Assembly (NCBI GenBank): GCA_002050235.1
Contig: MWST01000033.1
Span: forward strand, 1,986 to 65,985
Direction of reading: 5' to 3'
Origin: Polyangiaceae bacterium UTPRO1
GTDB lineage: Bacteria > Desulfobacterota > Binatia > UTPRO1
DNA: 64,000 bases
Under the pieces are notes generated by a model. The model worked only from the letters and a program-made list of their open reading frames with translations, made no database searches and was not told the DNA's origin. Positions 29,096 through 32,079 of the stretch are shown piece after piece. Position numbers and translations under genes: made by a program. Position 1 is the first letter of the stretch. Every line of letters starts with the position of its first letter.

Positions 29096-30139
29096 ATGAA
29101 GCTCCTCGTGACCGGCGGCGCCGGCTTCATCGGCGCCAACTACGTCCAGCACGTGCTGGCGACGTACCCCGATGACGAGATCGTCACCTTCGATCTGCTG
29201 ACCTATGCGGGCAATCTGGCCAATCTCGAGCCCGTGCTCGACAATCCGCGCCATCGCTTCGTGCGCGGCGATATCGCTGACCGCGCGGCCGTCACCGCGG
29301 CGCTCGGCGACGGTGTCGACGCGATCGTGAACTTCGCCGCCGAGTCGCACGTCGACCGGTCGATCGCCGATGCCGGCGTCTTCTTGACGACCAATGTCGT
29401 GGGTACCCAGGTCCTCCTCGACGCCGCCCGGGCGCATGGTGTCGGCCGCTTCCTGCAGGTCTCGACCGACGAGGTGTATGGGAGCCTGGGGCCGACCGGT
29501 GCCTTCAGCGAGGAGACGCCGCTGGCGCCGAACAGCCCCTATGCCGCCAGCAAGGCGGCCGCCGATCTCCTGGTGCGCGCCGCCCATCACACGCACGGCG
29601 TCCCGGCGCTGATCACCCGCTGCTCCAACAACTACGGACCCTACCAGTTCCCGGAGAAGCTGATTCCGCTGTTCGTCACCAACGCGCTCGCCGACCAACC
29701 GCTGCCCCTCTATGGCGACGGCCGCCAGGTGCGCGATTGGATCCACGTCGAGGATCACTGCCGCGGCGTCGACCTGGTGCTGCGCCAGGGGCGGGTCGGA
29801 GAGGTCTACAACCTCGGGGGCGGCAACGAGCGTGAGAACCTCGAGGTGGCGAAGCTGATCCTGGATACGCTCGGGAAGCCTCGCAGCCTGATCCGCCACG
29901 TCAGCGATCGACTCGGCCACGATCGCCGCTATGCGATCGACGCCCGCAAGATCGAGCGCGAGCTCGGGTGGACGCCGCGCCGGGAGTTCGCGCGCGGCCT
30001 CGACGACACGATCGAGTGGTACCGCGCCCACAGGGCGTGGTGGGAGGCGGTGAAGAGCGGCGCCTACCGCGACTACTACGAGCGCACGTATGGCCAGCGC
30101 CTGGTCGGCGCTGCCGGCGTGGAGGGGGATCGCACGTGA
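29096..30139 (+). CDS. rmlB: dTDP-glucose 4,6-dehydratase
   Basis: [17 protein letters not shown]...[10 protein letters not shown]...[11 protein letters not shown] (YxxxK) ...DHCRG. Confidence 0.92.
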
Positions 30140-31098
30140 AGCGCGCTCTCATCACCGGTATCACCGGGCAGGACGGCTCGTATCTGGCCGAGCTCCTGCT
30201 CGCCAAGGGCTACGAGGTCTACGGCATGGTGCGCCGCGCCAGCACCGAGAACTTCGAGCGCATCGAGCCGTTCCGCGACCGCATCCGGCTCGTGCAGGGA
30301 GACCTGCTCGATCCGATGTCGCTGATCACCCTGCTCGAGGAGATCCGCCCGCAGGAGCTCTACAATCTAGCCGCCCAGTCGTTCGTGCCGACGTCGTGGA
30401 GGCAGCCGGTGCTGACGGCGGAATTCGACGCCATCGGAGTTACCCGCGTGCTCGAGGCGATCCGTCTCGTCGACCGCAACATCCGTTTCTACCAGGCGTC
30501 GTCGAGCGAGATGTTCGGCAAGGTGCGCGAGGTGCCGCAGAGCGAGCTGACTCCCTTCCATCCCCGCAGCCCCTACGGCGTCGCCAAGGTCTATGCCCAC
30601 TACATCACGGTGAATTACCGCGAGAGCTATGGGATCTTCGCGTGCTCGGGAATCCTCTTCAACCACGAGTCGCCGCGGCGCGGAAAGGAGTTCGTCACGC
30701 GCAAAGTGACCGATGGCGTGGCCCGTATCCATCTCGGACTCGAGAGCGAGCTGCGGCTCGGCAATCTCGAGGCGCGGCGCGACTGGGGCTTCGCCGGCGA
30801 CTACGTCGAGGCGATGTGGCTCATGCTCCAACAGGCGGAACCCGACGACTATGTGGTGGCGACGGGCGAATCGCACACGGTCGCCGAACTCGCGGAGATC
30901 GCGTTCGGTCGCGTCGGTCTCGACTGGAAACGGTACGTGCGGGAGGATCCGTCGTTGAAGCGTCCGGCCGAGGTCGATTCTCTCGTCGGCGACGCAGCCA
31001 AGGCTCGCGACAGGCTCGGCTGGAAGCCGCGCGTGTCGTTCCCGGAGCTCGTCGGGATGATGGTCGACGCCGACGTCGCACGCCTGCGACGCTCCTAG
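30136..31098 (+). CDS. gmd: GDP-mannose 4,6-dehydratase
   Basis: [36 protein letters not shown]...[10 protein letters not shown]...[37 protein letters not shown] is near-identical in motif order to E. coli Gmd; GTG overlaps the rmlB stop. Confidence 0.92.
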
Positions 31099-31101
31099 CG
31101 C

Positions 31102-32079
31102 GTGCGCTACTTCGTCACCGGGATCGGCGGCTTCGCGGGGGGGCATCTCACCGCCGCGTTGCTCGCGGCCGGACACGAGGTGGCCGGGCTGGTGCGCGAG
31201 CAGCGGTCCCGTCCTGCGCTGGAGGCGCTCGCGGCGCGGTATCCGCGGTTCCGCCTCGAGGCGCTCGCGAGCGGAGACGTCGCCGACTTCGAAGCCGTGC
31301 GGACCGCCGTCGCCGCGGCGCGGCCGGACGGCATCTTCCATCTCGCCGGGATCGCGTTCGCGCCCCGCGCCGCTGCCGATCCGGCGCGAACCCTGGCGGT
31401 GAACGTGCTCGGGACGTGCAACGTGCTCACCGCTGCGCGGCGCGAGGCGCCGGCGAGCCGGGTCGTGGTGGTCGGGTCCGCCGACGTCTACGGTGCTGCG
31501 GCGAGCGCCGGCGAGCCGATCGACGAGGACCGGCCGCTCCGACCCGTCAGCACGTACGGGCTTTCCAAGGCTGCGGCCGACATGGCGGCCTTCCAGGCGT
31601 GGTGGGAGGCGGGGCTAGCCGTGGTCAGGGCACGCCCCTTCAATCACACCGGACCGGGCCAGCGCGGCGACTTCGTGTGCTCGGACTTCGCCCGGCAAGT
31701 CGCGCGCATCGAGCGCGGCGAGGCGCCGCCGGTGCTGCACGTCGGTAATCTCGCGAGCGCCCGCGATTTCGCCGATGTCCGCGACGTCGTGCGCGGCTAC
31801 GTGACGCTGATGGAGCGCGGTGCGCCCGGCGCCGCCTATAACCTCTGCAGCGGCGAGGCGGTGACGGTCGGCGCCATCGTGGAGATGCTCCGGGCCGAGG
31901 CGCGCGTCGCGTTCGCGGTCGTCGAGGAGGCGGCGCGCGTCCGGCACCGCGAGATCCCTCGGGTCGTCGGCGACGCGGCGCGGGCCCGCGCACTCGGCTG
32001 GGTCCCGGCGATCCCGCTCGGCCGCACTCTCCGCGACCTCCTCGAGTACTGGCGCGCGGCCGACGGCAGCGCCGCCTAG
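31102..32079 (+). CDS. rmd: GDP-4-dehydro-6-deoxy-D-mannose reductase (Rmd-like; GDP-D-rhamnose forming) SDR
   Basis: Colinear motif matches to Pseudomonas Rmd as I recall it: FVTGIGGFAGGHL, FHLAGIAFAPRAAADPARTLAVNVLGTCNVL, RPFNHTGPGQRGDFVCSDFARQVARIERG, VGNLASARDFADVRDV, YNLCSGEAVTV. It lies immediately 3' of gmd. Confidence 0.7.
   Translation: MRYFVTGIGGFAGGHLTAALLAAGHEVAGLVREQRSRPALEALAARYPRFRLEALASGDVADFEAVRTAVAAARPDGIFHLAGIAFAPRAAADPARTLAVNVLGTCNVLTAARREAPASRVVVVGSADVYGAAASAGEPIDEDRPLRPVSTYGLSKAAADMAAFQAWWEAGLAVVRARPFNHTGPGQRGDFVCSDFARQVARIERGEAPPVLHVGNLASARDFADVRDVVRGYVTLMERGAPGAAYNLCSGEAVTVGAIVEMLRAEARVAFAVVEEAARVRHREIPRVVGDAARARALGWVPAIPLGRTLRDLLEYWRAADGSAA

Follow-up and report, generated by a model that had tools for sequence, protein, structure and literature searches.

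We examined a 64,000-nucleotide stretch of contig MWST01000033.1 from Polyangiaceae bacterium UTPRO1 (hereafter referred to as the window), focusing on two adjoining genes at 30136-32079, a gmd gene and a gene for a short-chain dehydrogenase/reductase (SDR), which an initial annotation had read as a GDP-D-rhamnose pathway. Given the GC content of the window (~70%), open reading frames (ORFs) were filtered by third-position GC, and protein families were assigned with Pfam and NCBIfam models at curated cut-offs, sequence searches of the Protein Data Bank (PDB), BLASTP, and multiple alignment. Both genes lie on the + strand where they had been placed, with gmd directly upstream, and their third-position GC is coding-type (gmd 0.83, rmd 0.90). 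They belong to an unbroken + strand series of trpB, trpA, accD, folC, lptD, rmlA, cupin, rmlB, gmd, SDR, and gspE, which from lptD onwards reads as follows.

25395..27878, + strand: lptD, lipopolysaccharide (LPS) outer-membrane insertion (Pfam LptD, LptD_N, LptD_2); heads the coupled run, its stop overlapping the rmlA start
27875..28639, + strand: rmlA, short-form glucose-1-phosphate thymidylyltransferase, 254 aa (PDB 3hl3, E = 1.7e-82)
28636..29091, + strand: short RmlC-type cupin, 151 aa, probable dTDP-4-keto-6-deoxyglucose 3,5-epimerase (PF00908, 1.6e-21)
29096..30139, + strand: rmlB, dTDP-glucose 4,6-dehydratase (TIGR01181), start placed at ATG 29096
30136..31098, + strand: gmd, GDP-mannose 4,6-dehydratase, 320 aa (TIGR01472; PDB 1rpn)
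31102..32079, + strand: predicted Rmd-type GDP-4-keto-6-deoxy-D-mannose 4-reductase (EC 1.1.1.281), 325 aa (PDB 6x3b and 2pk3; motifs)
32106-33860, + strand: gspE (TIGR02533, 680 bits vs. a 630-bit cut-off)

All junctions from lptD through rmd are ATGA/GTGA overlaps or gaps of 3-4 nt: the rmlA/cupin junction is an ATGA overlap, gmd starts at GTG 30136 over the rmlB stop (GTGA), and rmd starts at GTG 31102, 3 nt past the gmd stop. In this translationally coupled run, (folC-)lptD-rmlA-rmlC (the short cupin)-rmlB-gmd-rmd, the gmd-rmd pair comes last. Since rmlA/rmlC/rmlB and gmd/rmd share the run, the operon appears to supply both a dTDP-linked and a GDP-linked 6-deoxyhexose branch. The four genes ahead of the pair did not figure in the initial annotation, nor did 6-deoxy-D-talose as an alternative product.

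By its equivalog-level match, the product of 30136-31098 is a true Gmd. It scored 439 bits against TIGR01472 (cut-off, 415 bits), covering profile positions 1-340 of 342, and its best PDB match was 1rpn (E = 1e-123), the GMD that acts in GDP-D-rhamnose synthesis in P. aeruginosa. The protein carries S-S-E, YxxxK, and SPRR motifs, and all six residues described as GDP contacts of GMDs (N179, V190, K193, R218, R279, and E282; PMC9415975) are retained with a constant +3 offset, as N176, V187, K190, R215, R276, and E279.

We then compared the SDR with Rmd and with its rivals. The top two PDB matches were the only two characterized Rmd enzymes, from P. aeruginosa (6x3b, 2e-58) and Aneurinibacillus thermoaerophilus (2pk3, 1.6e-55; hereafter At Rmd), followed by the 'putative epimerase' 4lw8 (2.4e-45), the C. 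jejuni GDP-heptose 4,6-dehydratase 7us5 (1e-32), and GMDs (~1e-23), with no Fcl among the matches at 1e-10. Neither the Gmd nor the Rmd matches could arise by chance at such values. BLASTP gave 35-37% identity to the characterized Rmds over the full length (At Rmd, 35%, E = 6e-72), as against 22% to E. coli Fcl (E = 4e-5) and E = 0.009 to RmlD (1kbz); the reference E. coli Fcl and S. enterica RmlD sequences were confirmed to be identical to 1bsv and 1kbz. The SDR also failed the NCBIfam models for Fcl (NF047922, 41.7 bits, E = 9.5e-11, vs. a 500-bit cut-off) and RmlD (TIGR01214, 36.7 bits vs. a 224-bit cut-off). NCBIfam has no Rmd model, and the best match there was LegB (137 bits vs. a 475-bit cut-off); in a preprint surveying rhamnose pathways, an Rmd hidden Markov model (HMM) likewise could not be built (10.1101/854612).

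At the level of motifs, the SDR has G7xxG10xxG13, S126-A-D, Y152xxxK156, and FNHTGPGQ at 180-187, and it shares FNHxGPGQ, S-x-D/E, and YxxxK with both characterized Rmds. Dehydratases have ...PRR at the position of the FNHxGPGQ segment, a contrast which is based on 116 sequences here and is not a published criterion. At Rmd aligns over the full length and shares FNHxGPGQ, YxxxK, and the R...E motif, although at 35% identity and with S-S-E in place of S-A-D, while in the third-best solved relative, 4lw8, the corresponding motifs read FNYTGVGQ and S-A-N. Of the six GDP-contact positions of GMDs, the SDR keeps five, and both characterized Rmds keep the same five. Fcl Cys109 and His179, which we take to be the acid/base pair of C3/C5 epimerization in the E. 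coli enzyme (GFS), align with Asp128 and Phe191 of the SDR, so the epimerase pair is not present. Extended SDRs all have one fold, and a predicted structure would not tell Rmd from its rivals. The comparisons above give good grounds for assigning the 31102 product as a 4-reductase of the Rmd type rather than an epimerase/reductase of the Fcl type. The comparison of Rmd with Fcl called for in the initial annotation thus came down on the side of Rmd, and the clustering with Fcl that had been named there as the contrary outcome did not occur. Since the reductase is of the Rmd type and its partner is a true Gmd, the pathway is best read as one of the GDP-D-rhamnose type, as had been proposed, with the configuration at C4 presumed from the relatives.

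We further placed the SDR among its relatives. An alignment-of-homologues scan for Rmd-family loci, with one genome per GTDB species, returned 80 loci, and these were mapped together with two further loci, L001 and L002 (n = 82), the window proteins being placed on each. The nearest loci come from 'Candidatus Binatia' and 'Deltaproteobacteria bacterium' metagenome-assembled genomes (MAGs), and in L001, L002, and L004-L009 both the gmd-rmd pairing and the position of lptD are kept. A gmd gene occurs in 40 of these loci; 28 have, in its place, two Rmd-like paralogues in tandem, and 16 have neither, many of the last being short contigs. GPGQ or GPRQ was found in all 38 gmd-adjacent members analyzed. 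The upstream tandem members have S-S-E and GPRR in 25 of 26 cases, as in Gmd and 7us5, and the downstream members have GPGQ. In a neighbor-joining tree, the window SDR fell in a clade with P. aeruginosa Rmd, At Rmd, the gmd-adjacent genes, and the downstream tandem members, which suggests, from their sequences, a clade of reductases always paired with a 4,6-dehydratase. Because the best PDB match of the upstream tandem paralogue is At Rmd and not a dehydratase, it is labeled a putative dehydratase only, though its motifs fit. Rmd-type genes lie beside gmd in Chloroflexota, Acidobacteriota, Thermodesulfobacteriota, Planctomycetota, Bacillota, and archaeal MAGs. Most family members adjoin gmd with no rml genes near, and most gmd-rmd pairs of other phyla have no cupin nearby.

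Together, gmd and the Rmd-type SDR probably form a two-step GDP-6-deoxyhexose branch, most probably leading to GDP-D-rhamnose, that serves envelope glycans, among which a heteropolymer or several glycans would be likelier than a pure D-rhamnan. Gmd would convert GDP-D-mannose to GDP-4-keto-6-deoxy-D-mannose, and the SDR would reduce this intermediate at C4 with NAD(P)H and no epimerization, most probably to GDP-D-rhamnose. One transcript would supply dTDP-4-keto-L-rhamnose as well as the GDP-linked sugar, a gene for the final dTDP reductase being absent from the operon. An envelope or LPS destination is plausible, and the sugars would most likely enter LPS-linked or other envelope glycans, assembled by conserved downstream machinery that includes GT4 and GT2 enzymes, the double methyltransferase, an initiating transferase of the PHPT type, and a Wzm/Wzt exporter with a carbohydrate-binding domain.

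Several observations weigh against this reading. The identity to characterized Rmds is only 35-37%, with no curated Rmd HMM to set a threshold; the enzyme family is functionally mixed, as the GDP-heptose 4,6-dehydratase 7us5 shows; and it contains a paralogous clade whose best PDB match is At Rmd as well. Neither the window nor the 9 kb past its end, which we followed on two contigs 100% identical to the window tail (L086 and L087), held an rmlD, manC, or wbpW; neither branch would therefore be self-sufficient here. Wzm/Wzt lies 16 kb downstream of gmd-rmd, behind a type II secretion cluster, and wzm or wzt matches occur near an Rmd-like gene in only 7 of the 82 loci. Finally, the stereochemistry at C4, that is, D-rhamnose versus 6-deoxy-D-talose, is not readable from sequence, and the intermediate is shared by both sugars, 6-deoxy-D-talose being formed from it as well (PMC10233464).

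It is this last point that gives rise to the alternative we take most seriously, unlikely as it is, namely that the SDR is a GDP-6-deoxy-D-talose synthase (Tld/GTS-type) whose product is the C4 epimer of D-rhamnose. Sequence analysis is silent on the geometry of hydride delivery, the identity to proven Rmds is limited, and we know of no sequence determinant of the rhamno or talo outcome at C4. The intermediate feeds GDP-6-deoxy-D-talose in A. actinomycetemcomitans (PMC10233464; PMC3584063). Against talose, both top solved relatives make D-rhamnose and share their motif set with the window SDR, and the A. actinomycetemcomitans tld gene, compared by length only, is 883 bp (~293 aa; PMC10233464) and encodes a shorter protein than the 325-aa SDR.

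How the GDP-linked sugar would be used depends on the downstream part of the window, in which the following features were identified.

32106..47015, + strand: complete type II secretion cluster, gspE to gspD (TIGR02533, Pfam), separating gmd-rmd from wzm/wzt
33857-34825, + strand: ArnC/GtrB-like GT2 with two C-terminal hydrophobic segments (Pfam), embedded in the secretion cluster
34841-36211, + strand: AlkP-family phosphodiesterase (Pfam), embedded in the secretion cluster
36154-37407, + strand: GT4, the sole one in the window (Pfam), embedded in the secretion cluster
46873..48627, + strand: TPR and TMTC/PMT-like polytopic protein, GT-C-like, with seven hydrophobic segments (TPR Pfams; TMTC_DUF1736 25.1 bits, below the 27-bit cut-off)
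48462..49487, + strand: wzm, ABC-2 permease (PF01061, 1.5e-15)
49484..50698, + strand: wzt, ABC ATPase with a C-terminal Wzt_C carbohydrate-binding domain (PF00005; PF14524, 52 bits vs. a 30-bit cut-off)
54089-56908: YfhO-like polytopic protein, GT-C-like, with 13 hydrophobic segments
56692-58764: GT-C-like membrane protein, predicted to be polytopic by hydropathy, with no family match
58761..60842, + strand: tandem double class-I S-adenosylmethionine (SAM) methyltransferase, 693 aa, cytoplasmic (Pfam methyltransferase families on two stretches)
60839-61963, + strand: GT2 (Pfam)
61982-63064, + strand: protein with a twin-arginine translocation (Tat) signal and no family match
63061 onwards, past the window end at 64000, + strand: start of a GT2 (Pfam), completed in L086/L087

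In order, wzt is followed by a secreted protein with no assigned function, a BNR-repeat protein, the YfhO-like protein, and the other polytopic protein; the ORFs at 51376, 56692, and 61982 had no Pfam or NCBIfam match. Past the window, L086/L087 carry at 11095-15283 (0-4 kb beyond its end) three GT2s, the first being the 63061 gene, and a 469-aa initiating transferase of the PHPT type (CoA_binding_3 and Bac_transf), and then genes for an acyl-carrier protein, an AMP-binding enzyme, and a GDSL lipase.

The initial annotation had matched the D-rhamnose pathway to Wzm/Wzt and noted that the GT4 and exporter classes of the P. aeruginosa system were all present. These classes are literally there, at a distance of 4-17 kb from gmd-rmd and with the secretion cluster between. 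The run from lptD to gspF is syntenic in L001 and L002 (Rmd identity, 72-80%), and that from the secretion cluster to the methyltransferase in L084 and L085, both of which also keep the TPR/TMTC protein upstream of wzm; L001 and L084 are overlapping stretches of a single 7 Mb contig. In four distant loci (L009, L010, L060, and L072), gmd-rmd directly adjoins wzm or wzm-wzt. Given this arrangement in relatives and the adjacency in the four distant loci, it is plausible, on indirect grounds, that the gmd-rmd sugar is used by the Wzm/Wzt pathway.

That the product is a Pseudomonas CPA-like D-rhamnose homopolymer exported by Wzm/Wzt, as the initial annotation had further supposed, seems to us a slim prospect. 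The common polysaccharide antigen (CPA, or A-band) locus is organized as rmd-gmd-wbpW-wbpX-wbpY-wbpZ-wzm-wzt and involves three GT4 enzymes (WbpX/Y/Z), the PNPT initiator WbpL, and WbpW. The window resembles it in part: Gmd and an Rmd-type reductase are adjacent, each with the corresponding P. aeruginosa CPA enzyme as its closest solved relative, the window has an ABC-2 exporter (here with a C-terminal carbohydrate-binding domain on the ATPase) with methyltransferase domains near it, and the locus is conserved rather than hypervariable in the relatives examined, as would suit a 'common' antigen. However, gmd precedes rmd here, the pair is joined to rmlA-rmlC-rmlB behind lptD, and the exporter is 16 kb off; the sole GT4 of the window is distant and sits inside the secretion cluster, and the surroundings of wzm/wzt, including the part past the window, comprise five GT2s, the PHPT initiator, the double methyltransferase, three GT-C-like proteins, and the ArnC-like GT2. 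Neither a PNPT nor a mannose-1-phosphate guanylyltransferase (manC or wbpW) was found among the window proteins with Pfam and NCBIfam. With rmlA, the RmlC-type cupin, and rmlB in the same operon, a second deoxysugar is presumably made, which argues against a single-sugar polymer; CPA is described as predominantly a D-rhamnose homopolymer (PMC3916391). The D-rhamnan homopolymer thus finds no support in the locus, which is not filed as CPA-type, and the pair is filed as Gmd and an Rmd-type reductase.

Other D-rhamnose systems were compared as well. By analogy, the wxc cluster of Xanthomonas campestris is the closest known logic to an operon of gmd-rmd and rmlA/rmlB, in that one O-antigen combines a GDP-D-rhamnose branch with a sugar derived from dTDP-4-keto-6-deoxy-D-glucose; its D-rhamnan backbone bears a dTDP-derived 6-deoxy-aminosugar branch, and WxcB is a WbdD-like methyltransferase/kinase (PMC4878081). 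The window differs in having an RmlC-type cupin, in lacking the isomerase, aminotransferase, and acetyltransferase genes of the region 3 N-acetylfucosamine pathway (PMC4878081), and in that its methyltransferase protein has no specific likeness to WbdD-type PDB proteins. Similarly, Burkholderia bceN/bceM (cepacian) pair a Gmd with an adjacent predicted Rmd and supply D-rhamnose to a heteropolymer, not a homopolymer, bceM itself being uncharacterized (PMC3584063). The D-rhamnose pathway of the window would differ in setting from that of At Rmd: the A. thermoaerophilus D-rhamnose glycan is the S-layer glycoprotein glycan of a Gram-positive organism, and not LPS.

We further considered the dTDP branch, in which the genes for the first three steps are present. 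RmlB matched TIGR01181 with 473 bits (cut-off, 365 bits), RmlA fell below the cut-off of TIGR01207 (257 vs. 361 bits), and the cupin fell below that of TIGR01221 (61 vs. 156 bits). The best PDB matches of the cupin are RmlC enzymes (~1e-12), ahead of GDP-heptose 3- and 3,5-epimerases (8dcl, 8db5, and 7m14; ~1e-6), and the positions of what we take to be the catalytic His and Tyr of RmlC align with RmlC structures. By sequence, it is probably a divergent RmlC, that is, a dTDP-4-keto-6-deoxyglucose 3,5-epimerase. Ahead of rmlB, the cupin gene is found at a distance of 8-96 nt in 13 of 14 loci, the 14th being broken by a contig end, and the L057 copy belongs to a complete cupin-rmlB-rmlD-rmlA operon. 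Since it adjoins rmlB and occurs in the full rml operon of L057, the cupin would serve the dTDP branch and not the GDP branch.

Taken together, the operon encodes two 4,6-dehydratases, one epimerase, and one 4-reductase. A search with the PDB-verified RmlD sequence found no RmlD in the 64-kb window, over the next 9 kb, or at the loci of relatives that are syntenic with it, and the run without rmlD is kept in the Binatia-like relatives; among the fetched loci, a true RmlD was present only in L012, L057, and L064. This imbalance, with the SDR standing last in order after rmlA-C-B, could be taken to mean that the Rmd-like SDR replaces RmlD and reduces dTDP-4-keto-L-rhamnose, alone or besides its GDP substrate. 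We regard this as very unlikely. The similarity of the SDR to RmlD is negligible, it keeps GDP-contact positions just as Gmd and Rmd do, most members of its family adjoin gmd away from any rml genes, and characterized GMD and RMD enzymes do not convert the dTDP intermediate (PMC9415975). Given that rmlD frequently lies apart from the rest of the rml set (10.1101/854612), an rmlD elsewhere in the genome is the economical reading. More doubtful still is the strong form of the proposal, in which the genome has no RmlD and one Rmd-family reductase finishes both branches as a dual-nucleotide 4-reductase. If true, the same enzyme would take GDP-4-keto-6-deoxy-D-mannose to GDP-D-rhamnose and dTDP-4-keto-L-rhamnose to dTDP-L-rhamnose or dTDP-6-deoxy-L-talose, and mirror-image deoxysugars would arise from one lptD-linked operon conserved across Binatia-like bacteria.

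The cupin also bears on a split Fcl-like route, in which it would epimerize the Gmd product at C3/C5 and the SDR would then reduce it to a GDP-6-deoxy-L-hexose, e.g., GDP-L-fucose, in parallel with the Campylobacter GDP-heptose pairs. Its matches to GDP-heptose epimerases and its score below the rmlC equivalog cut-off lend this some color, but the higher scores of the RmlC enzymes, the ties of the cupin to rmlB rather than gmd (with its place in the complete rml operon of L057), and the scarcity of cupins near the gmd-rmd pairs of other phyla make the route highly improbable. An assignment of the SDR as GDP-L-fucose synthase (Fcl/WcaG), which is a common partner of gmd and gave a weak NCBIfam match, can be dismissed on the score, the 22% identity, the substituted epimerase pair, and the PDB matches described above.

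D-rhamnose is regarded as a rare bacterial sugar. In a survey with very strict criteria, its GDP pathway was confined to Pseudomonas, Aneurinibacillus, and a chlorovirus, and Pseudomonas alone had both rhamnose pathways (10.1101/854612). The window very probably represents a known pathway, with no new mechanism, in a new, uncultured Binatia-like lineage and in an unusual operon fusion. A credible Gmd-Rmd pair joined to rmlA-rmlC-rmlB behind lptD, along with the pairs in other phyla, suggests that the likely distribution of the pathway is wider, and it provides a concrete prediction on the envelope chemistry of an uncultured group.

The genomic setting of the operon was also examined. The upstream part of the window (1-21200) is of a housekeeping character, with argS at 14138-15841, a SPOR-domain protein, trpE at 16639-18150, an indole-3-glycerol-phosphate synthase ORF, and, at ~170-13500, short ORFs of high third-position GC that by appearance make up a putative ribosomal-protein operon. 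Thus, the deoxysugar operon would stand in a core-genome context and not in a variable island. In addition, 13 of the 82 loci, which come from several phyla (L001, L002, L004-L006, L008, L009, L016, L027, L030, L032, L064, and L075), have lptD just ahead of genes for deoxysugar nucleotides, a recurrent linkage of which, to our knowledge, there is no earlier description.

The loci with a tandem pair and without gmd (L016, L027, L032, L035, L046, L064, L075, L077, and about 20 more) include those of Acidobacteriota and Aminicenantes MAGs, and the pairs often follow an rmlA-like gene, a short cupin, and rmlB, and sometimes lptD. These pairs may belong to a 6-deoxyheptose-type or an alternative GDP-deoxysugar pathway. 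Their arrangement of a dehydratase-like and a reductase-like gene, in the 28 loci, recalls the GDP-heptose pairs of the C. jejuni 7us5/DmhA-DmhB type, which are of the same SDR subfamily; the window differs from these in that its dehydratase is a canonical Gmd and its SDR has the reductase-type GPGQ, in contrast to the GPRR of 7us5.

The 693-aa methyltransferase protein is a candidate chain-end modifier that would be read by the Wzt_C domain. A second LDVGG...DVLEH motif was seen in the alignment, and the middle region between its two domains has no assignment. Its PDB matches are only to generic class-I methyltransferases, and a WbdD-like terminator was rejected. Its homologues at E <= 1e-10 number only 72, and most of them belong to Binatia-like or 'Deltaproteobacteria' MAGs. 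One relative (P0295, 983 aa) is fused to a GT2; in the window, a GT2 gene comes next.

The genes embedded in the secretion cluster may serve a glycosylation or lipid modification linked to the secretion system. Here the three lie between gspE and gspF, as they do in L001 and L002, and likewise in L004 minus the GT4, where the contig ends; L006-L008 keep all three, with an insert of ~4.5 kb between the GT2 and the phosphodiesterase. In addition, the three GT-C-like proteins and the ArnC-like GT2 suggest periplasmic glycosylation from polyprenyl-phosphate sugars besides the ABC-transporter pathway. As for the exporter region in single relatives, L009 (12469-13254), a more distant one, has the order lptD-rmlA-cupin-rmlB-gmd-rmd-GT2-wzm, with no secretion cluster between and a DUF772 transposase at the expected place of wzt, and L085, a close relative, carries a lipid A biosynthesis acyltransferase (Lip_A_acyltrans, 11173-12138) directly after wzt, where the sequence of the window has no assignment.

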